Source: Shigella phage JK36 | DNA: 64,000 nucleotides | Sequence record: MK962754.1 | Reading direction: 5' to 3' (one strand) | Shown here: positions 4,391 to 64,000 of the stretch, in pieces | Layout of the letters: each line of letters begins with the position of its first letter | How positions within the stretch are numbered: the first letter of the stretch is position 1 | Notes under the pieces: generated by a model | What the model was told of the DNA's origin: nothing | Seen by the model: the letters and a program-made list of their open reading frames with translations, nothing else | Database searches by the model: none | Translations under genes and position numbers: made by a program

Positions 4391-4696
4391 TTATTTTCCT
4401 CGGCATTCTTTAATGAAATTTTCTAGATTGGTAGATTCAATAGCTTTTTTACGAGCTTCGGCATGTTCTTCTTCAGACAATTTACATTTATAATTGACCC
4501 AGACATTATGGTCGAAACTAGTCGTGGCATATAATAACAATGCTCCAACGAATAGCAAAAACGGCGATAAGAATACAAAACCAGGAACACCATCCATATC
4601 GTACGCCTTTTGTAATACTGCAACAGAAAGAGCTGCGTAAAAAGGTGATGCAAATATTGTTAAAAGGCCAATTCGGTTGGTTTCGCCTAATTTCAT
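4391..4696 (-). CDS. small 2-TM membrane protein, 'FIxECR-tail' family (101 aa)
   Basis: Two hydrophobic helices; C-terminal ...ESTNLENFIKECRGK; ATG with GAGGAGA RBS; PeSL upstream. Confidence 0.5.
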   Translation of the reverse strand: MKLGETNRIGLLTIFASPFYAALSVAVLQKAYDMDGVPGFVFLSPFLLFVGALLLYATTSFDHNVWVNYKCKLSEEEHAEARKKAIESTNLENFIKECRGK

Positions 4697-4711
4697 AATA
4701 TTCTCCTCATG

Positions 4712-4756
4712 TTTTAATAGGACTACTATAATATAGCCCTATCAGTTTGTACACTT
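4712..4756 (-). promoter_or_regulatory. early promoter / PeSL-like cassette
   Basis: ATAGGACTACTATAATATAGCCCTATC stem-loop (GATAGG/CCTATC-type inverted repeat) with -35-like element; upstream of 4391..4696. Confidence 0.5.
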
Positions 4757-4955
4757 ATTTTGACATTTCTTCGATGTCACGACGATACCCATCACGAACT
4801 TCACGAAGAGCTTCAAGGCCACACATAGGCTCGATACCAGTAATGTGAACTTGATTAATCTGATACTCTACATCTTCTAACTGAGCGAAAACATAACGAC
4901 GTTCTGCTGCACAACCAGGTTTAGCTTTACCGAAACGTTTATTCAAAGTAGTCAT
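4755..4955 (-). CDS. hypothetical protein (66 aa)
   Basis: ORF-track start 4973 is GTG; ATG at 4955 (MTTLNKRF...) follows a PeSL cassette. Confidence 0.4.
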   Translation of the reverse strand: MTTLNKRFGKAKPGCAAERRYVFAQLEDVEYQINQVHITGIEPMCGLEALREVRDGYRRDIEEMSK

Positions 4956-4975: not shown

Positions 4976-5025
4976 ATTTGTTTTGATAGGTCTATAGTAT
5001 CAACAACTACAGACCTTGTAAACTG
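4976..5025 (-). promoter_or_regulatory. early promoter / PeSL-like cassette
   Basis: Minus GTTTAC (plus 5018-5023) + spacer + TACTATAGACC; variant of repeated cassette. Confidence 0.5.
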
Positions 5026-5035
5026 TTTTGCGAAA

Positions 5036-5992
5036 TTATTTGAAAGGTTTTACCATATGGAAATTTTGTTTGAAACGTTTGACGTAATCGTCGTGTCCTA
5101 AGCTTTGGTACATACTTACTACTTTGCTATAATTTTCCCAAGCGAACTCACGGAACCATCCTGATGTGATTGATGTACAGACCTTTTCAAGGGCCATCAT
5201 AAAACTATCACGTGGATGGATTTTAAAGTCGTTAGGAATCTGTGAACGTTCTAACGCTAGTACACATGATTCTTCGTATACGCCGGCCAATTTGACCATT
5301 TCTGGTAATGATTCGAACTTCTCGCGTGAGGTCATGACTTCAGAACCGTCTTTCATATAAAATGTATACGCTGGACGGTCTGTTAGTGCAATGGCTTCAT
5401 GAATAGTATCATGGTCATATGTATAGATGTCACCTTTAAAGAACGCACTTTTAGAAGTGTCAAGAACCGGGTGAGCATAGTTCAAGGTTTCTTTCTGGCG
5501 TTTCAGCATAATTTCAGTAAGTTCATCGTTCAGTGTAACACCTTTACCACGAAGATACTGAATATGGTTCATAGTCTTTAAAAAGAACGGATTATTTTTC
5601 TTGAAACGATGGGACATCTTAATTGCAAGACACATCTCAGGAGTTGCCCAGTAAAACCCGTTCAAACGGTCTTTAGTCAAATTTTTCTTGGCGTATTTTA
5701 AAAGGTCATAAGAAGACGTGAAATCTTCAGGAGTGAGTTCACCGACTAGTTCGCGAACGTTAGTGAGAGCCGGAACGATGTATGCTTCAAAATGAGTTTC
5801 GCGTCCATTATGGAAGCATTTGAAAACTTGGACATCAGGGTTATCTTGGTGAACATATACACCCATCATTTGATTTTTGAATGCATTCCAAGAACATTGG
5901 TCTGCAATAAAGTCCCAATCACTATTTTTAATAGCGCTAGAATCAATAAGACCGTGATAGTGAAGTGCACGAGAACCAATAACTAACATCAT
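5036..5992 (-). CDS. hypothetical protein (318 aa), possible nucleotidyltransferase-fold N-terminus
   Basis: Largest novel ORF; N-terminal IGSRAL...(17 aa)...SDWDFIAD resembles the G[GS]...D-x-D signature of pol-beta-type NTases (weak). Confidence 0.5.
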   Translation of the reverse strand: MMLVIGSRALHYHGLIDSSAIKNSDWDFIADQCSWNAFKNQMMGVYVHQDNPDVQVFKCFHNGRETHFEAYIVPALTNVRELVGELTPEDFTSSYDLLKYAKKNLTKDRLNGFYWATPEMCLAIKMSHRFKKNNPFFLKTMNHIQYLRGKGVTLNDELTEIMLKRQKETLNYAHPVLDTSKSAFFKGDIYTYDHDTIHEAIALTDRPAYTFYMKDGSEVMTSREKFESLPEMVKLAGVYEESCVLALERSQIPNDFKIHPRDSFMMALEKVCTSITSGWFREFAWENYSKVVSMYQSLGHDDYVKRFKQNFHMVKPFK

Positions 5993-6020: not shown

Positions 6021-6260
6021 TTAAATTTCACGACATGCGATATTATATTCATCCCAGAGGTCATCATGTGAAGCCTCTACCAATGGAACGATTGTACCGT
6101 TTATGTCTTCATTATAAGGGCAAATTGTACAGTGCGCATCTTCGAATCGGATGCCTTTGTGTTCAGATTTTTTATAACGCATATCGAATATCTTTGCAAA
6201 CTTTTCACGAGTAATGGTTTTACCAACCACTTTGGTTCCGATACTTTCGTAATAAATCAT
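6021..6260 (-). CDS. small Cys-containing protein (79 aa)
   Basis: Start moved to ATG with GGAG RBS (MIYYESIG...); contains HCTICP motif; follows PeSL. Confidence 0.45.
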   Translation of the reverse strand: MIYYESIGTKVVGKTITREKFAKIFDMRYKKSEHKGIRFEDAHCTICPYNEDINGTIVPLVEASHDDLWDEYNIACREI

Positions 6261-6273
6261 TGTGGACTCCATT

Positions 6274-6320
6274 TGTTTTGATAGGACTACTATAACATAG
6301 CCCTATCTTGTTGTAAACTG
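6274..6320 (-). promoter_or_regulatory. early promoter / PeSL-like cassette
   Basis: Minus GTTTAC (plus 6313-6318), spacer, TATAGT, stem-loop GATAGG..CCTATC. Confidence 0.55.
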
Positions 6321-6322
6321 TT

Positions 6323-6520
6323 TTAGCAAGAATAACTAGATGATACCCAGCCTTGAACAGTGATACTATTGTGGGATAATGAGATCGCGTCCTGGAGATT
6401 CAGACCTGCGTTATCTTCAATCCATAATGTAACTTCTTCGCGTTCTTCTGTTGCAATTTGGAACAGGTTTTCCAGAGCAGCTACTGCCGTACGTACAGCA
6501 CAATCTAATTCACGAGACAT
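6323..6520 (-). CDS. small protein, 'WVxSSxxC' paralog 3 (65 aa)
   Basis: C-terminus ...QGWVSSSYSC; N-terminal helix similar to neighbours; tandem with 6530..6802 and 6812..7117. Confidence 0.5.
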   Translation of the reverse strand: MSRELDCAVRTAVAALENLFQIATEEREEVTLWIEDNAGLNLQDAISLSHNSITVQGWVSSSYSC

Positions 6521-9131: not shown

Positions 9132-9359
9132 TTATTTTTTAATCAAATTGACATAAAACTTGGCGTCTTCGGGGTGCATGCCTTCGCAGTATTCTTCAAC
9201 CATGAACTTCTTAACAGCTTCATAAGGACCACTCAGATTAAGCTCAGTTGTCCAGAACTTGGAATCTTGGACTGAATCGATACGAACTTCAGGGTGGCGG
9301 TTGCGAATAACTTCTTCTGTGTATTCATAATCAACGACATCAATACTAACTTTAGCCAT
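9132..9359 (-). CDS. hypothetical protein (75 aa)
   Basis: ATG at 9359 preceded by PeSL cassette. Confidence 0.45.
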   Translation of the reverse strand: MAKVSIDVVDYEYTEEVIRNRHPEVRIDSVQDSKFWTTELNLSGPYEAVKKFMVEEYCEGMHPEDAKFYVNLIKK

Positions 9360-9365
9360 TTTGTT

Positions 9366-9418
9366 TTCCTCTTGATTTGATAGGACTACTATAACATAAA
9401 CTTACTTAGATGTAAATT
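9366..9418 (-). promoter_or_regulatory. early promoter / PeSL-like cassette
   Basis: TTGATAGGACTACTATAACATA plus -35-like TTTACA (minus); upstream of 9132..9359. Confidence 0.5.
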
Positions 9419-9570
9419 ATTTCAACGTCACCTTTAGCTGCTTTATAACCTTCAGCCCAAGATACAACAGAGTTTTTATCCGAGGATTCAAATTCAGGCA
9501 TTGGACTTTCACCAATATTCACACAGTATGTTTCTTCATTTTCATCGAACCAAATAATTAAAGTAGTCAT
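9406..9570 (-). CDS. hypothetical protein (54 aa)
   Basis: ATG at 9570 (MTTLIIWF...) with GAGGAG RBS inside conserved cassette; upstream ORF-track extension lies within promoter. Confidence 0.4.
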   Translation of the reverse strand: MTTLIIWFDENEETYCVNIGESPMPEFESSDKNSVVSWAEGYKAAKGDVEIIYI

Positions 9571-11883: not shown

Positions 11884-11973
11884 TGGCGGAGGCGATAGGA
11901 TTTGAACCTATGAGTCGCCGGAGCGACTGCCGGTTTTCAAGACCGGTGCATTAAACCACTCTGCCACGCCTCC
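11884..11973 (-). tRNA. tRNA-Ser (anticodon TGA), long variable arm
   Basis: Acceptor GGAGGCG/CGCCTCC, anticodon loop CTTGAAA, long variable arm, CCA encoded. Confidence 0.8.
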
Positions 11974-13085: not shown

Positions 13086-13275
13086 TTTTATCCATAACGA
13101 TAGCGATTAAACCGATTAGAAATGCTACTACCAATGAGATAGAATTTTCTGTTGTTGTCAGTAGTCCACAAATGAATCCTACAAACATCGAAAAACTAAA
13201 AGCCATTGAAGCAATTACTACAGCAACATTACGAATCAGTTCAGCGCGTTTCATTTTATTTCTCCATTTACTCAT
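13069..13275 (-). CDS. small membrane protein (68 aa)
   Basis: Two hydrophobic helices (VAVVIASMAFSFSMFVGFICGLL / LVVAFLIGLIAIVM); ATG after PeSL cassette. Confidence 0.4.
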   Translation of the reverse strand: MSKWRNKMKRAELIRNVAVVIASMAFSFSMFVGFICGLLTTTENSISLVVAFLIGLIAIVMDKIAKGE

Positions 13276-13277
13276 TT

Positions 13278-13322
13278 GATTTGATAGGACTACTATAACA
13301 TAATCCTATCATCATGTAAACT
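13278..13322 (-). promoter_or_regulatory. early promoter / PeSL-like cassette
   Basis: TTGATAGGACTACTATAACATAATCCTATC stem-loop; minus GTTTAC at plus 13316-13321. Confidence 0.55.
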
Positions 13323-13324
13323 AT

Positions 13325-13612
13325 TTACAGAAGAGTTTTTGCAATAATTTTAAGCTGAGCTACAGAAATGTGCTTAGCTTTAAACAGTGCAGTCTCTTCA
13401 GCCGGAGAGATAACAATAGTAGCGCCGTCTTTCTTAGCAGACCATCCATCCCCTAAGTAAACAGTACCTTTTACTTCTTCGCCGTCAACCAGACTAATCA
13501 TTGGTTTACCCTCACGTCCTTTATTTGCTTTAATAACTTCGGAAGTAAGGGTTGCTTCGGTCAGAGTAGAAACATTAGCAACAGGTGATATAAATTCTTT
13601 ATAGGTTTTCAT
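13325..13612 (-). CDS. ipI: internal protein I-like capsid-targeted protein (95 aa)
   Basis: MKTYKEFISPVANVSTLTEA... CTS-like; 95 aa and position adjacent to 57B as T4 ipI; symbol by position only. Confidence 0.55.
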   Translation of the reverse strand: MKTYKEFISPVANVSTLTEATLTSEVIKANKGREGKPMISLVDGEEVKGTVYLGDGWSAKKDGATIVISPAEETALFKAKHISVAQLKIIAKTLL

Positions 13613-13629: not shown

Positions 13630-13682
13630 GTTTATTTGATAGGATGATAGTAACACACCATCATCCTTATGTAAACTGTTTT
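13630..13682 (-). promoter_or_regulatory. early promoter / PeSL-like cassette
   Basis: GATAGGATGATAGTAACACACCATCATCC inverted repeat; minus GTTTAC at plus 13671-13676; upstream of ipI-like gene. Confidence 0.55.
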
Positions 13683-13689
13683 GTGAAAA

Positions 13690-14375
<686 letters not shown>

Positions 14376-14379
14376 TTTA

Positions 14380-15114
14380 TTACCTTAAGATTGTTTCAAT
14401 TTTAGAATAAAGCTCTTCTAAAGAGCCGTCGTTTGTAATAACTAAATCGCCTTCTTCAATAGGCAACCCAGCTTCTGTAATATGTTTATCGGTGGATTCC
14501 GTACCAGAGCGAACCACATGAATAACTGTAGCACCCATCGCTCTAGCGGTTTCCATTTCATGGACTTGGCGTGTATCGGTTACAACATAGTAATCGAAAT
14601 CACTTCCAATATAATCCATATAGTTTAATGCAAAAAGTTTAACCCAATACATACGGTCAAATAAATTAACGACAACATCCGTACCGAGGGCTTGCATAAG
14701 ACGGCGGATCGACCATGTGTCGTTGATATTATTTATAGCTTCGCGCAGGGCTTCATATGGTTTAATATCTAGATACGAATATCCACCTTCTAACGATGAT
14801 AATACTTTAACATTATTAATCGGTAAATAATGACTTTGCAAATAAATTAGCGCTTCTTCCAATAATTCAATAACATCCAACTTATTGAGATTTAATGGTG
14901 TTTCACGGTCGTATCCAATGCCTTCAAAGTATTCGTATTTCAACTCGGTGAATACATCAGGGTTTTCAGCATGTTTACGACCCCATGCGATTGCTAGAGC
15001 GTCTTTAATCGGATATGCTAATTGGTATTTTACGGATTTAAAGTTTGAATTGATGTAATCAGCAGTAGTGTCTTTACCACTACGTTTGATGCCACTTAAA
15101 AAGATTAGCTCCAT
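14380..15114 (-). CDS. 1: deoxynucleoside monophosphate kinase (gp1)
   Basis: MELIFLSGIKRSGKDTTADY... P-loop; very similar to T4 gp1 (241 aa). Confidence 0.95.
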   Translation of the reverse strand: MELIFLSGIKRSGKDTTADYINSNFKSVKYQLAYPIKDALAIAWGRKHAENPDVFTELKYEYFEGIGYDRETPLNLNKLDVIELLEEALIYLQSHYLPINNVKVLSSLEGGYSYLDIKPYEALREAINNINDTWSIRRLMQALGTDVVVNLFDRMYWVKLFALNYMDYIGSDFDYYVVTDTRQVHEMETARAMGATVIHVVRSGTESTDKHITEAGLPIEEGDLVITNDGSLEELYSKIETILR

Positions 15115-15167
15115 AGGTTTTCCTCATATAATTTATGAGTGATTATAACATACGGAGCTAGAAGCGA

Positions 15168-15758
15168 TTAACGCAAGGAAGGGTGTCTAGAAATGGATTT
15201 AGATTCGACTGCTTGACGTGGTTGTTGAGATACAATGACTTCACCATCCTTTTCTATCGTCATATACGCATAGTGAATAGTTGCTACGCATGTAACGGCA
15301 GGGTCAGAGTCTTCAGTGTAACTAAATTCAATTTCACTCAAATCAGAAATCCATGGTTTATAGAAATTCGCCGTCAAAACTACTTCAGTCTTATTGTTGT
15401 TTAAAATGTGCAAAGTAACAAACTCAGGACCATCGGAGTGGGCTGTATTATGACCGGTTATATAGTTATTAGTGCTGAGCATCCATTTATACATGTTCAT
15501 CCAGGACGTCATGTCTTCATCAACTATAAATCGTACAACAAAAGGGTCATATTCAAATGTGGTGCCTGCACGCATTGCACGTCCTAACCCCATTGTGCCC
15601 GTCACAGTTTCAACAACAGGAATTCTCACACCAGGTAATGGAGCCGTTTGAGCATTAAGCACAAAACCTGAAGTTCGTGTACTATCCGGGATATCCACAA
15701 CAAAGTTTGTTATATTTGTTTGGTTAAAAATCTGTCTCGCTGGACGAGTCATAAGCAC
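15168..15758 (-). CDS. 3: gp3 tail completion/sheath stabilizer protein
   Basis: Synteny 1-3-2-4; size close to T4 gp3; exact start (15758/15752) uncertain. Confidence 0.75.
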   Translation of the reverse strand: MLMTRPARQIFNQTNITNFVVDIPDSTRTSGFVLNAQTAPLPGVRIPVVETVTGTMGLGRAMRAGTTFEYDPFVVRFIVDEDMTSWMNMYKWMLSTNNYITGHNTAHSDGPEFVTLHILNNNKTEVVLTANFYKPWISDLSEIEFSYTEDSDPAVTCVATIHYAYMTIEKDGEVIVSQQPRQAVESKSISRHPSLR

Positions 15759-15766
15759 CTCAAAAA

Positions 15767-15803
15767 CGCTTTAATAAAAATGCAGTATAATGGTTTTAGG
15801 TCT
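15767..15803 (+). promoter_or_regulatory. middle-promoter-like module (cGCTTTA + 12 nt + TATAAT) in plus orientation
   Basis: 18 nt GTATAATGGTTTTAGGTC identical to uvsY promoter module; oriented antisense to genes 2/4. Confidence 0.35.
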
Positions 15804-15854
15804 CTTCCATTAATCCGGTTCAACAGAATATCAGAAGAACGGAAGAGAATAGAA

Positions 15855-16676
15855 TTAAGATTTCCAAACAGTATTCGCAGAGAAACGTTTTCCTTTTGAC
15901 ATAAACTGCTGAGTAGGTAACATGATTATGTTAGCCCAGTCTTTAGGAGCTATTTCTGTTATTGTTCCTCTAATGTGGCCTGGCAGGTATGCTTTAATCA
16001 TTTTGTCAGCACCTTGAAATCCTTTCACCTTGCTCCAGTCTATCTTCAACTTTGTGTTATTAGTAATAGTGGTTGTGCTAGCATATTGCTTCAGCAATTC
16101 TTCAAGAAACTGTTGTCGTGCTTTAGGTGGGATATAGTGCAAGTTTAACCCATACATCAAATTATGTTTACCTAATCCTAAATAAATAATCAAAGGATAT
16201 CTGTCCCAATACGGCAGAGTATCTTTATGTTTAGCATCATACACGTAAGTATAAATTTTGCCTGGCGTAGGCTTGACTACTTTATGACCTTTTACACTTT
16301 TTTTAATTGTTTCAACAAACCACTTAGATGATTTATTGTTTACTGCTGCGCCTTCATTTCTAATCTTTTCTCGTATTGAACTGCGAAACGAGTTTATCAT
16401 CAGAAGTTGACGTTCTTGCTTATTGAGTTTATTTTTAGGTTTAGATTCAAGCGTTTCAATTTTCTGTGCAGTTTTAATAGATGATGCATATCTAGACATT
16501 GCAGATGTAAACGACGAGTATTTTATTCCTTTTGATTCTGCAAATGCTTTTGCAGTGATTCCTTTCTCTTTAGCTTTCTTGTATTCTAATCCTATCTCAA
16601 TCCATTTTCTTTCATTCATAGACTGAGCAATCTTAGGGGCTTGTACGCCTTCAGATATAATTTGGAATATGCTCAT
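15855..16676 (-). CDS. 2: gp2 DNA end protector protein
   Basis: 273 aa; synteny and size match T4 gp2. Confidence 0.85.
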
Positions 16677-16678
16677 AA

Positions 16679-17128
16679 TTACCCCTTGTATCCGAGTTTT
16701 CTAAGACCATCTTCGGTTAGAACTCGAAATTTTATATTTCTCTTTTCAGCAACAGCTGAGGCAGCTTTCCATTTGTCACAGTTCACAGACCACGTGTAGA
16801 TTTCATTCATATAACGTTTCTTAGCCGCAGTTGTAAGATTCACCGGTTTAATAGGTGGCTGAGTTTCTTTCTTTGGTTTTATTTCTACAAAGAACTCTTG
16901 ACCTGATGTATCTTTCATCCATATGTCCATATAGTATCGACGTTTCTTACCTTCTGCGTTACAGAAATATGGAATTACTGCTGTTTCACTACCCCATGCA
17001 ATAATTTCTGGATTTTTATCCAACCATTCGAAAAAGAATTTTTCCCAGTTTGAACGATACGTTATTTTGGTATGGTCTCCACGGTATTTTTTTAAATTTT
17101 TTGGGACCCATTTACCAGAGTAGGCCAT
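16679..17128 (-). CDS. 4: gp4 head completion protein
   Basis: Start set to ATG at 17128 (MAYSGKW..., 149 aa) preceded by GGAGGA RBS and late promoter; ORF-track extension unlikely. Confidence 0.85.
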
Positions 17129-17139
17129 GTTGTCCTCCT

Positions 17140-17147
17140 TATAAATA
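17140..17147 (+). promoter_or_regulatory. T4 late promoter TATAAATA (gene 53)
   Basis: Exact TATAAATA 43 nt upstream of gene 53 start. Confidence 0.6.
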
Positions 17148-17154
17148 GTATTAT

Positions 17155-17162
17155 TATTTATA
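17155..17162 (-). promoter_or_regulatory. T4 late promoter TATAAATA (gene 4)
   Basis: Exact TATAAATA on minus strand 27 nt upstream of gene 4 ATG. Confidence 0.6.
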
Positions 17163-17189
17163 CCAATTTCATATTGGAAGGAGACTATC

Positions 17190-17765
17190 TTGTTATTTAC
17201 ATTCTTCGACCCAATAGGATATAGTGCTAAAACAGTTGATAAGAATGCACCTACTATTCCTATGACAGACATATTTCGTAACTATAAAGAGTACTTTAAG
17301 CGTGTTGCTGCCAATTATAGATTACGTTCTTATTATATTAAAGGCTCTCCGCGTCCTGAAGAACTAGCGAATATCATTTATGGCAACCCTCAATTATACT
17401 GGGTTCTTTTGATGTGTAATGACAACTACGACCCGTATTATGGTTGGATTACATCTCAGGAAGCAGCGTATCAAGCTTCTATTCAGAAATATGCTAATGC
17501 AGGCGGCGACCAAATTCTTTATCATATTAACGAGAACCGTGAGAAATTTTACAATTTAGTTTCATATCCAGACGAGCCTTTAGTGTGGTACGATAAAGGT
17601 GATGAAGCTCGTAAGTATCCGCAATATAAAGGACCTTTAGCTGCAGTAGATATTTATGAAGCGGCTGTATTAGATAACGAAAAACTTCGTAAAATAAAAA
17701 TTGTTGCAAAAGAAGATATAAACTCGTTTATTACTGATTTGATTCGTGAGATGGAGATTGCATAA
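17190..17765 (+). CDS. 53: gp53 baseplate wedge subunit
   Basis: MLFTFFDPIGY... very similar to T4 gp53; TTG start after GGAAGGAG RBS. Confidence 0.85.
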   Translation: MLFTFFDPIGYSAKTVDKNAPTIPMTDIFRNYKEYFKRVAANYRLRSYYIKGSPRPEELANIIYGNPQLYWVLLMCNDNYDPYYGWITSQEAAYQASIQKYANAGGDQILYHINENREKFYNLVSYPDEPLVWYDKGDEARKYPQYKGPLAAVDIYEAAVLDNEKLRKIKIVAKEDINSFITDLIREMEIA

Positions 17766-44170: not shown

Positions 44171-44577
44171 TTTAAAGGTTAACACAAATGACTACTATCA
44201 AAACTAAAGCTCAGCTCGTAGACAAATGGAAAGAACTGCTGGAAGGTGAAGGCCTGCCGGAAATCGCTAATAGCAAGCAGGCTATTATCGCTAAAATCTT
44301 CGAAAACCAGGAAAAAGATTTCGAAGTATCCCCTGAATATAAAGACGAGAAAATCGCTCAGGCATTTGGTTCTTTCTTGACCGAAGCTGAAATTGGTGGT
44401 GACCATGGTTATAATGCTCAGAACATCGCAGCGGGTCAAACCTCTGGTGCAGTAACCCAAATTGGGCCGGCAGTTATGGGTATGGTTCGTCGTGCTATTC
44501 CTAATCTGATCGCTTTTGATATTTGTGGTGTTCAGCCTATGAACAGCCCGACCGGTCAGGTATTTGCTCTCCGTGCA

Positions 44578-45422
44578 GTATATGGTAAAGACCCTATCGC
44601 TGCTGGCGCTAAAGAAGCTTTCCATCCGATGTATGCTCCAGATGCGATGTTCTCTGGTCAGGGTGCTGCTAAGAAATTCCCAGCTCTGGCTGCTGACACT
44701 ACTACTGTTGTAGGTGATATCTATACTCACTTCTTCCAAGAAACTGGTACTGTATATCTGCAAGCTTCTGCTGTCGTAACACTTGATTCTGGTGCAACTG
44801 ATGCAGCTAAATTAGATGCAGAAGTTAAGAAACAAATGGAAGCTGGTGCACTGGTAGAAATCGCTGAAGGTATGGCTACTTCTATCGCTGAACTCCAGGA
44901 AGGTTTCAACGGTTCTACCGATAACCCATGGAATGAAATGGGCTTCCGTATCGATAAACAAGTTATCGAAGCTAAATCTCGCCAGCTGAAAGCTGCTTAC
45001 TCTATCGAATTAGCACAAGACCTCCGTGCAGTACACGGTATGGATGCTGATGCTGAATTGAGCGGTATTCTGGCTACAGAAATTATGCTAGAAATCAACC
45101 GTGAAGTTGTTGATTGGATTAACTACTCTGCACAGGTTGGTAAATCTGGTATGACCCTGACTCCGGGTTCTAAAGCTGGTGTATTTGACTTCCAGGACCC
45201 GATTGATATCCGTGGTGCTCGTTGGGCCGGTGAAAGCTTTAAATCTCTGTTGTTCCAGATTCATAAAGAAGCAGTTGAAATTGCTCGTCAAACCGGTCGC
45301 GGTGAAGGTAACTTCATTATCGCTTCCCGTAACGTAGTTAACGTACTGGCTTCAGTTGATACTGGTATTTCTTACGCTGCACAGGGTCTGGCTTCTGGTT
45401 TTAATACCGACACTACTAAGTC
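44578..45422 (+). repeat. tandem direct repeat, copy 1 (845 bp)
   Basis: Identical to 45423..46267 except C at 45262 (G at 46107). Confidence 0.95.
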
Positions 45423-46267
45423 GTATATGGTAAAGACCCTATCGCTGCTGGCGCTAAAGAAGCTTTCCATCCGATGTATGCTCCAGATGCGATGTTCTCT
45501 GGTCAGGGTGCTGCTAAGAAATTCCCAGCTCTGGCTGCTGACACTACTACTGTTGTAGGTGATATCTATACTCACTTCTTCCAAGAAACTGGTACTGTAT
45601 ATCTGCAAGCTTCTGCTGTCGTAACACTTGATTCTGGTGCAACTGATGCAGCTAAATTAGATGCAGAAGTTAAGAAACAAATGGAAGCTGGTGCACTGGT
45701 AGAAATCGCTGAAGGTATGGCTACTTCTATCGCTGAACTCCAGGAAGGTTTCAACGGTTCTACCGATAACCCATGGAATGAAATGGGCTTCCGTATCGAT
45801 AAACAAGTTATCGAAGCTAAATCTCGCCAGCTGAAAGCTGCTTACTCTATCGAATTAGCACAAGACCTCCGTGCAGTACACGGTATGGATGCTGATGCTG
45901 AATTGAGCGGTATTCTGGCTACAGAAATTATGCTAGAAATCAACCGTGAAGTTGTTGATTGGATTAACTACTCTGCACAGGTTGGTAAATCTGGTATGAC
46001 CCTGACTCCGGGTTCTAAAGCTGGTGTATTTGACTTCCAGGACCCGATTGATATCCGTGGTGCTCGTTGGGCCGGTGAAAGCTTTAAATCTCTGTTGTTC
46101 CAGATTGATAAAGAAGCAGTTGAAATTGCTCGTCAAACCGGTCGCGGTGAAGGTAACTTCATTATCGCTTCCCGTAACGTAGTTAACGTACTGGCTTCAG
46201 TTGATACTGGTATTTCTTACGCTGCACAGGGTCTGGCTTCTGGTTTTAATACCGACACTACTAAGTC
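45423..46267 (+). repeat. tandem direct repeat, copy 2 (845 bp)
   Basis: Direct repeat of 44578..45422; carries the T4-like Asp codon (GAT) at 46107. Confidence 0.95.
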
Positions 46268-46625
46268 TGTATTTGCCGGTGTACTTGGTGGTAAATACCG
46301 CGTATACATCGACCAGTATGCTAAACAGGATTACTTCACCGTTGGTTACAAAGGCGCTAACGAAATGGATGCAGGTATTTACTATGCTCCTTACGTTGCA
46401 CTTACCCCGCTGCGTGGTTCCGATCCTAAGAACTTCCAGCCGGTAATGGGCTTTAAAACTCGTTACGGTATCGGTGTTAACCCGTTTGCTGAAAGTTCCC
46501 TGCAGGCTCCAGGTGCTCGCATCCAGTCCGGTATGCCATCTATCCTGAACAGCCTTGGTAAGAACGCTTACTTCCGCCGTGTATATGTAAAAGGCATCTA
46601 ATCTTAATTGATTAAATCTTATTTT

Positions 46626-46923: not shown

Positions 46924-46985
46924 TTTGTTTACTCCTCTGTAGTTGATAAGTCTATAGTATCACATACCAAATACGTTGTAAACAA
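46924..46985 (-). promoter_or_regulatory. early promoter / PeSL-like cassette
   Basis: 43 nt identical to 9564-9606; minus GTTTAC at plus 46978-46983. Confidence 0.55.
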
Positions 46986-46989
46986 TCTT

Positions 46990-46997
46990 TATAAATA
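46990..46997 (+). promoter_or_regulatory. T4 late promoter TATAAATA (gene 24)
   Basis: Exact TATAAATA 28 nt upstream of gene 24 ATG. Confidence 0.6.
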
Positions 46998-47024
46998 ATC
47001 TATATCACATAAGGAAAAAATGCA

Positions 47025-48338: not shown

Positions 48339-49337
48339 TTATGATACTAATTCAATCCATGCAGGACGCAGAACATCTTGCACCATTCGGACTAATTCTT
48401 TCTTAACAAGATTCGGATTATCAGATGATGTTAATACAATACCTTCGCGAGAAGTTTCTTCCAGAATATCTTGAACAGTCAATCCCATCACTTTGCCAAA
48501 ATCTTTTGGCGTTACAGCACCAATCTTAGAAATCACATTATTAATACGATTTAATGTAACATAACAAGCTAGAACATCAAGCAAGTTTTTGTCAGTTTCG
48601 GTTAATGGAACCTGAGTTTTAATAGGCTTATCAGACTTTTTCTTTTCACTGAATTTAGAGTTCTTGCACTTAATAGCTACACGAGTACCGTTTGGCAGCC
48701 ATTTAGGGAAACAAGGCTTCAGAACATAACCTTCTGCCGTATTATCGCCAATAACATTAGCATCAAATACGCAATTATTTGCTTCGACAAGGTCTTCCGA
48801 TGCCGTGGCGTTATAAGCGGCTAAGACAGAATCAAGATCGTTTGGAATCATGATAAGAGCATCAAATGTGCCACGTCCAAGCATTGGTGCCATTTTAAAA
48901 CCGAATTCATTACAGAAATCTTGCATTTCGTAATCGGTCAAATACGTATTATCACCACTTTCTGTATTGATAAGGATATCGAACACATAAAAATCTTTTT
49001 CACCGTAGTCAACACCTTTCTGGATTCCACCACCAGCGAATTCACCGAATACTTGATATGATACGGCTCGAGAACTACCCATTACTTCTTGAACGTTTTT
49101 AATAGCCTTATCATACTTCTTGAGTACGATTTCATAACCATAAAAATCTTCTGCCGGAAGAATAGGGCCTGTGCGCTTGGCGCATGTGACGTTGTCACGT
49201 TCAATTATTAACGAGAAGTTAGTCCCATGGATTTTCTCACGTGCTACCCAAACACCAGTAGTCAAACCATTAGTGTAGAGTTTTTCAATAAACTTAGAGT
49301 TGTAGTGGTTTTCAAGACTGCTGTATTTCTTAAACAT
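48339..49337 (-). CDS. rnlB: RNA ligase 2
   Basis: [21 protein letters not shown]...[12 protein letters not shown] (KxHG nucleotidyl-lysine motif); near-identical to T4 Rnl2. Confidence 0.9.
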
Positions 49338-49456
49338 AAATCACCATTATAAATAATAATATCAAAATAATTAGCAGAGACTCTATCTCTGACCGGATGT
49401 TTAATTTGAATGGATAGAACCTAGATTCATTATACCATCAAAAATTGTAAAGCATA

Positions 49457-49708
49457 TTAGAACTTGATTTCTATCCAATGACCATCACGCTGGTCGTGAT
49501 TAATTTTGTACTGAAAGCCGTTATCACGAAGCCATTGACCGACTTGTTCAGTTATAGTTAAATCGTTCTTTGACGGGTAGTACGTGAATTGTGTCTGGCC
49601 TTTATCAGCGGCTTTCTCTGCCATCACAGAGAAGTTAGTAATAAAATCACTCAACAAATTAGCTTTAGTGGCCAGCGCCCTTTCTCTTAATTCCTGTGCA
49701 AAACTCAT
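49457..49708 (-). CDS. hypothetical protein (83 aa; 24.2 position)
   Basis: ORF downstream of 24.3-like gene; position-based. Confidence 0.5.
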   Translation of the reverse strand: MSFAQELRERALATKANLLSDFITNFSVMAEKAADKGQTQFTYYPSKNDLTITEQVGQWLRDNGFQYKINHDQRDGHWIEIKF

Positions 49709-53890: not shown

Positions 53891-54115
53891 TTATACCACT
53901 CGCATGCACATATCGATACCCATATCTTTTGTATAAAAATACTCGTCGATGTACCCAGCAAACTTCCCTTTAATATAAAGGACGTCTTCGCCACAAGGGT
54001 GGTCTGCCAGGATACGAATATCCTGACGACGTAGACGATACTTTTCCATTAAGAATTTAATTTCAGTTTCAAATTCTTCGTCATTATTAAAGGCATCTTC
54101 AATTGAATAACGCAT
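53891..54115 (-). CDS. uvsY.-2: UvsY.-2 protein
   Basis: 74 aa ORF immediately downstream of uvsY (ATGA overlap). Confidence 0.6.
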   Translation of the reverse strand: MRYSIEDAFNNDEEFETEIKFLMEKYRLRRQDIRILADHPCGEDVLYIKGKFAGYIDEYFYTKDMGIDMCMRVV

Positions 54116-54528
54116 TATTGCCCCGCTTCAAATTCTCGCATATCCTGGATATGTTTAAGTGCAAAACTACGAGACTTAACTGCGTCAAGTGCACCACTAC
54201 AGAACTCAAGTAAAATTCCCCAGTATTGTAAAGTAGTCTCTATTTTAAGCACATCTTTATCTGCAGCCAGGACAGTTTTCATTTCAGATTTCTCGTATCG
54301 GTCCATACTGAATTCATCACCGTCACCTCGTCCCGAGTAGTAGTCTAATCTTGCTTTTAGAGCAGTTTTCTTCTGAGTCTCTATACGCAACATTTCTTTA
54401 CGAATAAATGAGTGCTTACGTAGCCATTTGCTGTATAACTTAACATTATTCGCCGTCTCATATTGCAACTTTGTCGTATCAATAGCTAAGTCTGCGTCTA
54501 ACTCTTCCTGTAAATCTTCCAGCTTCAT
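54115..54528 (-). CDS. uvsY: UvsY recombination mediator protein
   Basis: 137 aa as T4 UvsY; strong similarity. Confidence 0.9.
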   Translation of the reverse strand: MKLEDLQEELDADLAIDTTKLQYETANNVKLYSKWLRKHSFIRKEMLRIETQKKTALKARLDYYSGRGDGDEFSMDRYEKSEMKTVLAADKDVLKIETTLQYWGILLEFCSGALDAVKSRSFALKHIQDMREFEAGQ

Positions 54529-54582
54529 AATATTCTCTCTTTAACTAATAATCTCCCGGCTGTATCGGAAGGACCTAAAACC

Positions 54583-54607
54583 ATTATACATAGGTTGCCT
54601 TGAAGCA
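54583..54607 (-). promoter_or_regulatory. MotA-dependent middle promoter (uvsY)
   Basis: Minus strand TGCTTCA (MotA box) + 12 nt + TATAAT, about 50 nt upstream of uvsY. Confidence 0.55.
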
Positions 54608-55006
54608 TTACACTCTATTGCTTGACGCTAACTGAAGTTTAATTTGTTCAATATCGTCAGGGTTGTCTACGACCGAAAATCTAATCTCTACTATAACCGT
54701 ATAGTCATCATATACTGGCGTTACACTTACAGAAAGTTTGTCGATGCGTGGCTCATAGTTACGAACAGCTGCCTGGATATTACGCTCAATCGTATCGGCT
54801 GTAAGTGGTGTCATGTTCTCGAAAAGTTCATCGACCAAATCACATCCAAATTCAGGGTCGAAGGGGCGTGAGCCTTTTCTAGTTGTCACTATACCAAGAA
54901 GACTATTTTTAATAGAACGAAGTCCTACAGAACGAGCAACGTCCTTGTTCCAATCCATACGCATTTCTGGATCGATATCTGAATAAAGTTTATTGATATT
55001 AGACAT
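54608..55006 (-). CDS. 25: gp25 baseplate wedge subunit
   Basis: 132 aa as T4 gp25. Confidence 0.85.
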   Translation of the reverse strand: MSNINKLYSDIDPEMRMDWNKDVARSVGLRSIKNSLLGIVTTRKGSRPFDPEFGCDLVDELFENMTPLTADTIERNIQAAVRNYEPRIDKLSVSVTPVYDDYTVIVEIRFSVVDNPDDIEQIKLQLASSNRV

Positions 55007-62318: not shown

Positions 62319-64000
62319 TCCTTGGATAAATTTAAACGGAACTGATTCTAAATCCATTAAAGATGCTAACAATTTCAAACCTTTAGGTGCACTAGTTTTT
62401 TCTACAAATGAGGCAAAAGATACCGGCTCATCTGATTCGATTTCACCCGTCATAGCAACTACCTCGCCTGTTTCCATGAGAACATCACCATCGTAAATGA
62501 CAGCTTCGTCCAACTGGTCCGAGGACATGACTTCAGCTTGAATAAATTTAAGGTTGGATTCTAAACCTGCACCAGTGTCAGATGACGCATCTGTAATTTT
62601 ATTTATCTGCAAGAGAATGCCTCTAGGCAAAATAATTTCTTGCTCATTAGGGTGATTACTCAACTGTCCGGGATAAATCACGTTAACTTTATGAGCGCCA
62701 TCAATAGCCCATCCAACATTAACACGAATTTGTTCTGGCGCATGCATAGCGGTACGTGCCAGGCTAGGAGAAATAGTAACACCTTCGTCATTATTGTCAA
62801 TGTTAAGCTCTTTGCGAACTTCTTCAGGAGCAAGTCCAAGGGCAACGTTCTCTTTAAACCCACCAAAAATAATAGGAGCTAATGAAGTAGAAACATAGTT
62901 TCTGAAGTAGAATACCTTATTTTTAACCATTGCTTCGTAAATAGGCATTCTGATAGACTGGGCTCTATACAACGTTAGTCCTTCAGGTAAACGGTCTCCA
63001 TTTAAAAACGCCGAATCAAGACCATCAATAGCGCGTTTAACTTCATCTTCATCTGCAACATCATAAAAATCCGGTTTATAACGGCCTAACAACATATTAT
63101 TGATATCGGTATACGCAGAAGAGGCATATTCGCGAATAGCTCGTTTTTCAGCAACAGAGTATTGTTTAGGGTCCCGATTCATTGTTATATTAAAGGTGCC
63201 TCTAGCCGATTCTCGTGCATAAGTATACATCACATTAGACAAGAACGCTGATTTACGTTGTTTCCAAGTTTTTTCAGATACTTCAGCTAAAACATCGTCG
63301 GCCAGTTGGAAATTATCACGTCTAAAATCTTCAAACCATTCGTCTTTAATTGAGTCCGCAATTTCGTTTGCAGCTTCAACAAAAGCAGCTAATGCTTTAA
63401 CAGATGTTGTTTTTTCAGTTTTAATTTTCTTAGCAAACTTTTCTAAAGTTGGCTTAATAACACTACCATAAGAAACTTCATCAGCAAATCTAAAGGATTC
63501 ATCAATACGATTATAAATCTTATTTTCGATATCAGCAACTAAAGTGCCTTTTGCTGTGGATGATGCTTGGGCTAGTACGATTTCATATGCTTCAGGAAGT
63601 AATTCGGCTGTAGCCGGGCCACTAACTTCTTTAGCAGAATTTTCGTATTTCTGGAATAACTCACCTTCTTGGCGGTCAGCTTCTAAAGATTGGCTTGCGG
63701 CAATAGCACGACGAGAAATTTTAGTACGAGCAATAACAGGCTTATCTTTACGTTTTTCTTCTACAGCAGCAATAGAACCAGCGATAGCCGTTTCTTTGGT
63801 GACTTTTTCGCCGGTCTTTTTACTCACATAAACTTCGCCAACATCAGAATCTACTTTCGTGTACAACTCTGTGTTAATGTTAGGGATGCCTTTAATATCT
63901 TCAATGTTGGCATTTTTACGAACCATCATCACATAGGTGTGTTTACCTGTGAATTGATACATTGCCGACAATACTTTAAAACGACCACCGGTTTTAGTAG
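62316..64000 (-). CDS. alt: Alt ADP-ribosyltransferase (packaged, injected), C-terminal about 560 aa; start beyond window
   Basis: Position after gene 54 on opposite strand; size and C-terminal sequence consistent with T4 Alt; frame open to window end. Confidence 0.8.
   Translation of the reverse strand, partial: TKTGGRFKVLSAMYQFTGKHTYVMMVRKNANIEDIKGIPNINTELYTKVDSDVGEVYVSKKTGEKVTKETAIAGSIAAVEEKRKDKPVIARTKISRRAIAASQSLEADRQEGELFQKYENSAKEVSGPATAELLPEAYEIVLAQASSTAKGTLVADIENKIYNRIDESFRFADEVSYGSVIKPTLEKFAKKIKTEKTTSVKALAAFVEAANEIADSIKDEWFEDFRRDNFQLADDVLAEVSEKTWKQRKSAFLSNVMYTYARESARGTFNITMNRDPKQYSVAEKRAIREYASSAYTDINNMLLGRYKPDFYDVADEDEVKRAIDGLDSAFLNGDRLPEGLTLYRAQSIRMPIYEAMVKNKVFYFRNYVSTSLAPIIFGGFKENVALGLAPEEVRKELNIDNNDEGVTISPSLARTAMHAPEQIRVNVGWAIDGAHKVNVIYPGQLSNHPNEQEIILPRGILLQINKITDASSDTGAGLESNLKFIQAEVMSSDQLDEAVIYDGDVLMETGEVVAMTGEIESDEPVSFASFVEKTSAPKGLKLLASLMDLESVPFKFIQG

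Follow-up and report, generated by a model that had tools for sequence, protein, structure and literature searches.

The spacer between genes 3 and 2 of Shigella phage JK36 carries a short module that, judged by its sequence, is a reversed, positionally fixed middle-promoter cassette evolving in concert with the promoter of uvsY, which is itself orthologous to T4 PuvsY, the oriF promoter. On balance, we favor the view that the module is an active MotA/AsiA-dependent promoter, that it starts a noncoding RNA antisense to gene 2 near position 15798 with uvsY-like timing, and that it is homogenized with PuvsY by gene conversion. Positions refer to the window, i.e., the whole stretch of 64,000 nucleotides that was analyzed (MK962754.1). 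The window belongs to a Mosigvirus (RB69-type) relative of T4, and 152 phage records match it at this locus at 95-99% or better.

RESULTS

Two facing copies of a MotA-type promoter

The module lies within the 102-nt spacer that separates the start of gene 3 (15752) from the stop of gene 2 (15855); gene 4 begins at 16679 on the minus strand, and genes 53 and 5 are on the plus strand (Table 1). The first-pass annotation had reported an 18-mer, GTATAATGGTTTTAGGTC, as identical at plus 15785-15802 and minus 54572-54589, and the match proved to be exact at these coordinates. It is the sole exact inverted 18-mer in the window, and a search at up to 3 mismatches found no further match to it elsewhere in the window. 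Ungapped similarity of the two copies reaches 34 nt at 79% (15785-15818 / 54556-54589), and when a 1-nt indel is allowed, similarity further downstream takes in CTTCC and CCGG. The two inverted copies are 38.8 kb apart and face each other across the late-gene block (gene 2 to uvsY).

The elements of a middle promoter were found at both sites. On the minus strand, TGCTTCA (54607-54601) is followed by a 12-nt spacer, TATAAT (54588-54583) and the uvsY ATG (54528-54526), the anatomy that had been described for a MotA-type middle promoter at uvsY. On the plus strand, the order is cGCTTTA (15767-15773), a 12-nt spacer and TATAAT (15786-15791), and the earlier description of the gene 3/2 copy as a MotA-class sequence running along the plus strand, antisense to gene 2, was right, gene context included. 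The elements of the reversed module fit the pattern of a T4-type middle promoter, namely, a MotA box (a/t)(a/t)TGCTT(t/c)A centered near -30 and a TAnnnT element 11-13 bp past it with no -35 hexamer. A C replaces the consensus T ahead of GCTT in AAACGCTTTA, as it does in the mapped T4 promoters PnrdC.7, PrIIA, Ptk.3 and Pdex.2. A generic -35/-10 scan did not call the reversed module, as expected for the middle-promoter class. The mapped start of T4 PuvsY, 115371, is an A seven nt past TATAAT in the homologous sequence TATAATgaatctA, and the start of the module was predicted by analogy with it.

TABLE 1 Coordinates of the reversed module, its relatives and the neighboring features in the window
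Feature	Position	Strand	Description
Gene 3 (tail completion / sheath stabilizer)	15168..15752	-	Ribosome-binding site adjoins back of MotA box
MotA box of reversed module	15764..15773	+	AAACGCTTTA; GCTT core 15768-15771; center ~30 nt upstream of predicted start
Segment common to uvsY promoter	15785..15818	+	Spans -10 and first ~20 transcribed nt
-10 hexamer TATAAT	15786..15791	+	12 nt 3' of MotA box, without -35 element
Predicted transcription start	15798	+	A, 7 nt past -10; by analogy with T4 PuvsY
Hairpin	15801..15848	.	Core CTCTTCC 15802-15808 / GGAAGAG 15841-15847, between module and gene 2 stop codon
Gene 2 (DNA end protector)	15855..16676	-	Gene that the reversed module would transcribe antisense
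Third family member	49429..49457	-	ATATGCTTTA, 13-nt spacer, TATAATgaatctaggttctatccatt; site at -49434; 97 nt upstream of rnlB start codon
uvsY (recombination mediator)	54115..54528	-	Driven by partner module
Partner 18-mer copy	54572..54589	-	Includes -10 TATAAT 54588-54583; predicted start near 54576
MotA box of uvsY promoter	54601..54610	-	TAATGCTTCA; its TAA is the gene 25 stop codon

The third family member has a transcribed sequence of the family type (gaatctaggttctatccatt), and from its sequence it looks like an ordinary promoter serving rnlB (48339-49337). As for the activator, MotA homologues were found in 1142 records, including that of phage DCP548 (PQ671645), which is 98.4% identical to the window at the locus; motA itself lies outside the 64-kb window. 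RB69 is listed among the motA+asiA phages in a review.

Two further kinds of repeat were observed in the window. An 845-bp tandem duplication lies within the major capsid gene 23 (44578-46106), exact over 684 nt at that offset, and splits the gene into two overlapping open reading frames (44188-45558 and 45474-46601); removal of one duplicate unit restores an intact 522-codon gp23. It is probably an assembly artefact, the other option being a real duplication, which would be lethal. Families of 57- to 66-nt direct repeats occur at 4694-4759, 6258-6323, 9357-9422, 13261-13326, 4983-5039, 13636-13692 and 46943-46999. Their reverse complement shows GTTTAC...TATAGT-type early promoters beside hairpins, i.e., PeSL-like cassettes on the minus strand.

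The T4 counterpart is the best MotA-type site of its genome

A weight matrix covering the Mot box, the spacer and the -10 region was built, after a check of the coordinates, from 58 mapped T4 middle promoters (Hinton 2010), which were scored leave-one-out. The reversed module of the window scored 18.0 bits, about rank 18 of 61 and thus in the upper third relative to mapped promoters. With the same T4-trained matrix, the uvsY promoter of the window reached 19.2 bits and the -49434 rnlB promoter 21.2 bits, the top MotA-type site in the window. The mapped PrnlB of T4 is a poor match (5.9 bits), and another copy is present elsewhere in Mosigvirus genomes; the poor T4 match beside a strong rnlB site in the window suggests that the module family is differently distributed between genera.

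In T4, the plus strand of the gene 2-3 spacer reads taATGCTTTA-13-gGTATAATgggTCTAAGTCCcttccatt, and PuvsY reads taATGCTTCA-13-gGTATAATgaaTCTAAGTCCatccaat. The MotA box of this orthologue is a perfect TAATGCTTTA, and the site scores 23.5 bits, the highest value in the genome (PuvsY, 22.6). The whole T4 genome holds 52 sites of at least 15 bits, 50 of them on the early/middle strand, where most coincide with mapped promoters. The late strand has just two, at 75988 (gene 2-3 spacer) and 11885 (srd/modA spacer); these are the top two of the genome, and both have TCTAAGTCC(c)TTCCATT past the -10, a transcribed sequence of the PuvsY type. When the 12 positions downstream of the -10 were compared among 1711 promoter pairs, PuvsY/P2-3 and PnrdC.7/P2-3 were the most alike; they agreed at 10 positions, where the average pair agreed at 3.5 (sd 1.6). 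The window carries the Mosigvirus version of one of the two best MotA consensus promoters of T4.

Neither T4 GenBank record annotates a promoter at the gene 2-3 spacer, no middle promoter near T4 76,000 is among the 58 compiled in 2010, although a search by consensus should rank this site first, and nothing on the gene 2-3 locus was found in the literature on T4 antisense RNA, transcription start site maps, "anti-late RNA" or origins. The two best MotA consensus sites of T4 oppose their local genes and are absent from the promoter lists consulted, although T4 transcription and replication rank with the best-mapped systems in biology.

The T4 site at 11885 forms a second reversed PuvsY-type module (NC_000866, 11786-11907; -10 at 11885 on the plus strand; 23.3 bits; AAATGCTTTA-12-GGTATAATgaatctaagtccttccatt). 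It stands back-to-back with the srd early promoter, is directed antisense into the modA 3' end and modB, and is kept in other Tequatroviruses. The oriA point, annotated at 16763, is ~4.9 kb away. The scan also returned early/middle-strand sites of 16-19.7 bits outside the 2010 list, at -148350, -132792, -139194, -137496, -143623 and -90530. The last is antisense to gene 11, classed as "middle" in unstranded RNA-seq counts. At the listed start of Pcd (132839) no recognizable promoter was seen, and a strong site has its -10 at 132792; hence, the Pcd coordinate given in the list may be inaccurate.

The promoter elements are the conserved part of the spacer

Reversed modules were found in the gene 2-3 spacers of Moonvirus CF1 (19.0 bits, the top site in 50 kb), Karamvirus KMB20 (16.0 bits), Gaprivervirus RZ (20.4 bits) and the Acinetobacter Lazarusvirus Apostate (15.3 bits). 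The corresponding spacer of Aeromonas phage 44RR holds an annotated intergenic repeat, one of six copies, which is also reversed. In an alignment of the spacers of six genera, mean identity was 47%, TATAATG was the only fully invariant block, and a GCTT box stood 12-14 nt upstream of it in all six, indicating that the conserved footprint is that of the plus-strand promoter. Five other Mosigvirus loci have an identical module, and a degenerate scan of viral contigs showed that all three T4-type copies are kept in other Tequatroviruses; the pattern used, GTATAATGNNTYTARGTC, was too loose, and it matched chiefly unrelated contigs.

The first-pass annotation had offered a relic of cassette transfer as one explanation. 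This did not hold up, since at least six MotA-encoding genera have the module at the same place and in the same orientation, no columns of the spacer other than the promoter elements are invariant, and the module coevolves with the uvsY-side promoter of the same genome (see below). Fixed placement, invariant promoter elements and coevolution together argue for an ancient and maintained element, and against a decaying leftover or a recent Mosigvirus-specific duplication. On these sequence grounds, the reversed module is no accident; it is a maintained member of the T4 program that is absent from promoter lists.

The module is missing in Jiaodavirus, a MotA-encoding genus in which genes 2 and 3 abut, and in the one RB49-type Krischvirus examined (GEC-3S, NC_025425). 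To our knowledge, the RB49-type lineage lacks motA. GEC-3S alone has a small reversed open reading frame in the gene 2-3 spacer (63302-63580): an oppositely oriented gene of 84 codons, with a bidirectional terminator after it. A reverse-oriented transcription unit is thus present at this position even without a MotA-type module, and it could represent the ancestral state or an independent insertion. Separately, an identical 17.1-bit Mot-type match, GACGGCTTCC-12-TTGTTATAAT, was seen antisense within gene 25 of Moonvirus (L015, +39556) and Karamvirus (L016, +41722). It is probably a by-product of coding conservation, and the window has no counterpart of at least 14 bits.

The two copies evolve in concert

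The gene 2-3 copy and the promoter beside gene 25 were compared in seven genomes, ungapped and anchored on the -10, with 18 positions outside the -10 being scored. Global alignment with free end gaps was dropped because it gave noisy identity matrices in which pairs slid out of register. Pairs from the same genome matched at 14.3 of the 18 positions, paralogous pairs across genomes at 8.0, and orthologues at 8.1-8.2. The observed within-genome match was reached by the true pairing only, i.e., in 1 of 5040 permutations, and in 1 of 120 when the five Tevenvirinae were taken alone.

The shared sequence differs from genome to genome. The two copies have in common GGTATAATG..TCTAAGTCC in T4, TCGCTTTC-13-GTTATAATGGTTTTGAGTTC in Karamvirus, off-consensus box included, TATAATGGTTCTAGACC in Gaprivervirus, and TCAATCAATAACA, located further downstream, in Moonvirus CF1. 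The pair is near-identical over ~85 bp in Acinetobacter phage Apostate, from the box to about +50, and ~90 bp are common to both copies in Aeromonas phage 44RR. Across genomes, the inverted copies are convergent and 38-40 kb apart. These data indicated that a convergent inverted pair bracketing the late block evolves in concert, and gene conversion would keep two inverted copies alike. A role in late mRNA is ruled out as their common constraint, because the sense in which late transcripts read one copy is opposite to that for the other. The reversed module combines promoter-grade sequence, orientation, conservation and concerted evolution.

A hairpin adjoins the module

The hairpin that separates the module from the stop codon of gene 2 is predicted to fold at -25.3 kcal/mol in the minus (late mRNA) sense versus -13.7 kcal/mol in the plus sense; the T4 values are -23.2 (late-mRNA sense) and -11.9 kcal/mol. 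Its stem is kept by compensatory changes, with the arms CTTCCATT/AATGGAAG in T4, CTTCCGGT/ACCGGAAG in CF1 and TTCTTCCGGA/TCCGGAAGAA in Karamvirus, and it is probably part of the gene 2-to-3 late message. An intrinsic terminator, as annotated in a relative by WebGeSTer, was rejected, for the loop measures ~30 nt and a U-run is present on neither strand. No Rfam match was obtained at E<=1. No conserved open reading frame was found on the plus strand past the predicted start, and a small-protein reading was discarded on that ground; an ATG in the hairpin arm occurs in T4 and not in the window.

On the plus strand, terminator-like hairpins with T-runs lie within antisense genes 2 and 4, at 16200-16218, 16538-16555 and 16754-16766. 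Five such sites were found in 15100-17400, compared with 1.2 expected from shuffles. By sequence, those in genes 2 and 4 are possible end points of an antisense transcript.

T4 expression classes at the locus

In a published T4 time course (PMC9697503), directional libraries were made and the reads were counted by featureCounts defaults, with strand ignored. Its Table S2 classes gene 2 as "middle" and genes 3, 4, 53, 5, 5.1, 5.4, 6-10, 12-20 and 22-24 as "late"; gene 2 is thus the only member of the 4-2-3 operon classed as "middle" in these unstranded counts. Also "middle" in the same table are gene 34, which holds the antisense promoter P34i, and gene 11, with which an antisense site of 16.0 bits, predicted by our matrix, overlaps. 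Three of the 29 late-block genes deviate from "late" (p ~0.1), and the antisense sites predicted in T4 genes 7 and 18 are accompanied by no class shift in the unstranded counts. The T4 counts fit a pre-late RNA over gene 2 that stops short of gene 4, an indirect hint.

That a middle promoter can run antisense to a late gene has a precedent in P34i. In the 2007 work of Stoskiene et al., some excellent consensus matches reportedly yielded no transcript, whether in vivo or in vitro, and the T4 gene 2-3 and 11885 sites could be among these transcript-less matches. Moreover, gene conversion alone can produce the identity with PuvsY, from which a shared function need not follow.

DISCUSSION

We infer that the reversed module is active in vivo. 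Among the options that the first-pass annotation had raised, an antisense RNA appears to be the best backed, by the promoter score, the cross-genus footprint and the hint from the unstranded T4 RNA-seq counts. The TATAAT at 15786-15791 would be opened a few minutes into infection by the host RNA polymerase, carrying AsiA-remodeled sigma-70, together with MotA bound at 15764-15773; transcription would then proceed on the plus strand from near 15798 through the hairpin and into the antisense strand of gene 2. The timing would match that of uvsY because the same promoter drives both. The length of the transcript and a role in silencing gene 2 are conjectural. The RNA would contain no conserved reading frame and would probably end within or just past gene 2, by Rho or at the hairpins at 16200 and 16538, and antisense pairing or head-on interference would hold gene 2 silent during the replication/recombination phase. 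A plausible rationale is that a DNA-end-binding protein would be kept off while UvsX/UvsY recombination-dependent replication needs free ends. If active, the module would add to the T4 middle program a conserved antisense unit that is timed like uvsY and aimed at the gene for the DNA end protector.

Other explanations have to be weighed against this antisense promoter. A rather unlikely but serious one is that the module is a second oriF-type origin, at which an R-loop just past the promoter would prime rightward leading-strand synthesis into the late-gene block. This would mirror the leftward initiation from the uvsY promoter, and the homogenized copies would be a by-product of origin-dependent recombination. 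According to a review, oriF and oriG need only ~100 bp, namely, a middle promoter and a downstream unwinding element without specific sequence. The module and PuvsY have in common the first 12-50 transcribed nt as well as the promoter; such a promoter plus ~50 bp makes up the minimal oriF/oriG unit, a span that the common segment covers, and the shared unit of Apostate (~85 bp, Mot box to ~+50) is of minimal-origin size, in keeping with the ~100 bp of these origins. The T4 gene 2-3 copy lies 3.3 kb from the oriE point (annotated at 79,355) and points towards it; array mapping also places oriE a few kb from this copy. A replication review states that no middle promoter is known near oriE and that early replication mostly starts in late-gene regions, at strand-switch points, and the other reversed T4 copy (11885) has the oriA point 16763 at the distance given above. 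Against an origin speak the plasmid screens for autonomously replicating T4 fragments, which yielded oriF and oriG only, and the annotation of oriE with a minus-strand direction and an early promoter. Besides, PnrdC.7 of T4 and the rnlB promoter of the window, both of the same family, look like ordinary gene promoters, and to fall within 5 kb of one of five origins in 169 kb is a ~30% chance event. Composition did not help: A+T over +1..+61 is 68.9% in the T4 gene 2-3 copy (rank 30 of 58), 70.5% at oriF (22 of 58) and 62.3% at oriG (50 of 58), and neither A+T nor a nearest-neighbor stability measure separates oriF/oriG from other promoters. Somewhat more doubtful is the bolder proposal that the gene 2-3 module and the uvsY promoter form paired convergent R-loop origins, with the reversed copy being the missing MotA-dependent part of oriE and the 11.9-kb copy standing likewise near oriA. 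If true, forks sent out by the paired origins, and hence sliding clamps, would enter the late genes at either end, and origin-triggered recombination between the copies would explain their concerted evolution. The reversed module, if active, would be a testable candidate for the unexplained oriE properties.

We also consider it unlikely that the module acts at the DNA level alone, as a PmSL-like dispersed repeat with little or no productive transcription that is overwritten from the selected uvsY promoter and serves as a recombination substrate, with gene conversion and a potential inversion of the 38.8-kb block. The concerted evolution of the copies was directly observed, T4-type phages are documented to carry repeated promoter/stem-loop cassettes, Mot-box versions included, through which recombination takes place, the module is not in the mapped promoter list, and Jiaodavirus dispenses with it. 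A passive copy, however, should decay or be lost in compact genomes, whereas two subfamilies have retained the spacer, the orientation and the promoter elements, the T4 copy is undegraded as the best consensus match of its genome, and a pre-late RNA signal lies over T4 gene 2. In addition, a crossover between the copies would cut gene 3 off from the late promoter that lies upstream of gene 4, so that inversion is probably deleterious. Very improbable, in our judgment, is a late-mRNA element, made up of the hairpin 3' of gene 2 and the leader of gene 3, with the promoter likeness on the other strand being incidental. Such an element would account for a hairpin about twice as stable in the late-mRNA sense, with compensatory changes, and for a Mot box adjoining the gene 3 ribosome-binding site; yet the hairpin lies outside the promoter elements, invariance coincides exactly with the -10 and the GCTT box, and the covariation of the copies is left unexplained, as late mRNA reads the module at the uvsY site in the opposite sense. 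The orientation towards genes 53 and 5 is compatible with their early or middle transcription by read-through of antisense genes 2 and 4, the earlier entry into the baseplate cluster that the first-pass annotation had suggested. We give this hardly any credence: ~1.4 kb of untranslated antisense RNA would need to escape Rho, the plus-strand terminator-like hairpins starting at 16200, 16538 and 16754 stand in the path, and in T4, genes 4, 53 and 5 are "late" even in the unstranded counts, only gene 2 being shifted, and their proteins are late. There remains a chance likeness of two unrelated A+T-rich sequences. When the window was shuffled 200 times (dinucleotide-type), 22 of the shuffles contained some exact 18-mer repeat (11%), and for that reason the repeat alone is weak evidence (p ~0.1). 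Chance is refuted by the copies being in register with the promoter elements and by the same paired layout in seven genomes, with its 1 in 5040 permutations, and we regard its probability as practically negligible.

Besides the antisense promoter that we favor, the copies are of interest in their own right. Concerted evolution of 20- to 90-bp inverted promoter copies that are 38-40 kb apart, in two subfamilies, offers a clear natural record of ectopic gene conversion among T4-type phages. This record holds whatever the function of the module, and it is testable on existing data.

Among known systems, the PeSL/PmSL cassettes (Arbiol 2010, Comeau 2014) resemble the module in being short intergenic units of a promoter and a hairpin that are repeated and recombination-prone; versions with a Mot box (PmSL) have been noted in vibriophage nt-1 (Arbiol 2010, Comeau 2014). 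In copy number the module is similar, with three promoter copies in the window (15786+, 49434- and 54588-) and at least four in T4. In contrast, PeSLs occupy hyperplastic regions, are co-oriented with the small variable genes that they flank, and promote insertion and deletion, whereas the module is reversed, sits in the conserved late core between genes 2 and 3, where it is fixed across genera, and is one of a long-range inverted pair; the hairpin that adjoins the gene 2-3 copy is not part of the repeat common to the other copies. Neither Arbiol 2010 nor Comeau 2014 mentions uvsY, inverted copies or the gene 2-3 locus. Closer in layout are two of the "6 copies of repeated sequence in intergenic regions" of 44RR2.8t (AY375531), which have the convergent arrangement of the module: one in the gene 2-3 spacer (plus strand, L019 455-566) and one just downstream of gene 25 (minus strand, L024 4780-4846), with ~90 bp in common, TATAAT...TAGGCC among them. 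The repeat unit consists of a stem-loop, TTTTTATCC, TATAAT and a second hairpin. Unlike the module, it scores only 10.2 bits with the T4-trained matrix, which recognizes no T4-type Mot box in it, and its annotators gave no function or orientation logic.

T4 P34i, the oriG promoter, is like the module a MotA-type promoter that has no coding job and opposes a late structural gene, and its host gene is "middle", as gene 2 is, in the unstranded counts. It differs in its place within a coding sequence of the usual early/middle strand orientation for such promoters and in having only generic PuvsY features (GTATAATGG), whereas the module lies between genes, runs along the late strand and is related to PuvsY by true sequence kinship. 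With T4 PuvsY, the module shares the Mot box, a 12- to 13-nt spacer, TATAAT, the -10 flanks and the initial transcribed sequence, and in each of the genomes examined the gene 2-3 module is closest to the promoter at the PuvsY position of that same genome. The two differ in that PuvsY has a gene to express and is a demonstrated R-loop origin, whereas the module faces away from the genes on its own strand.
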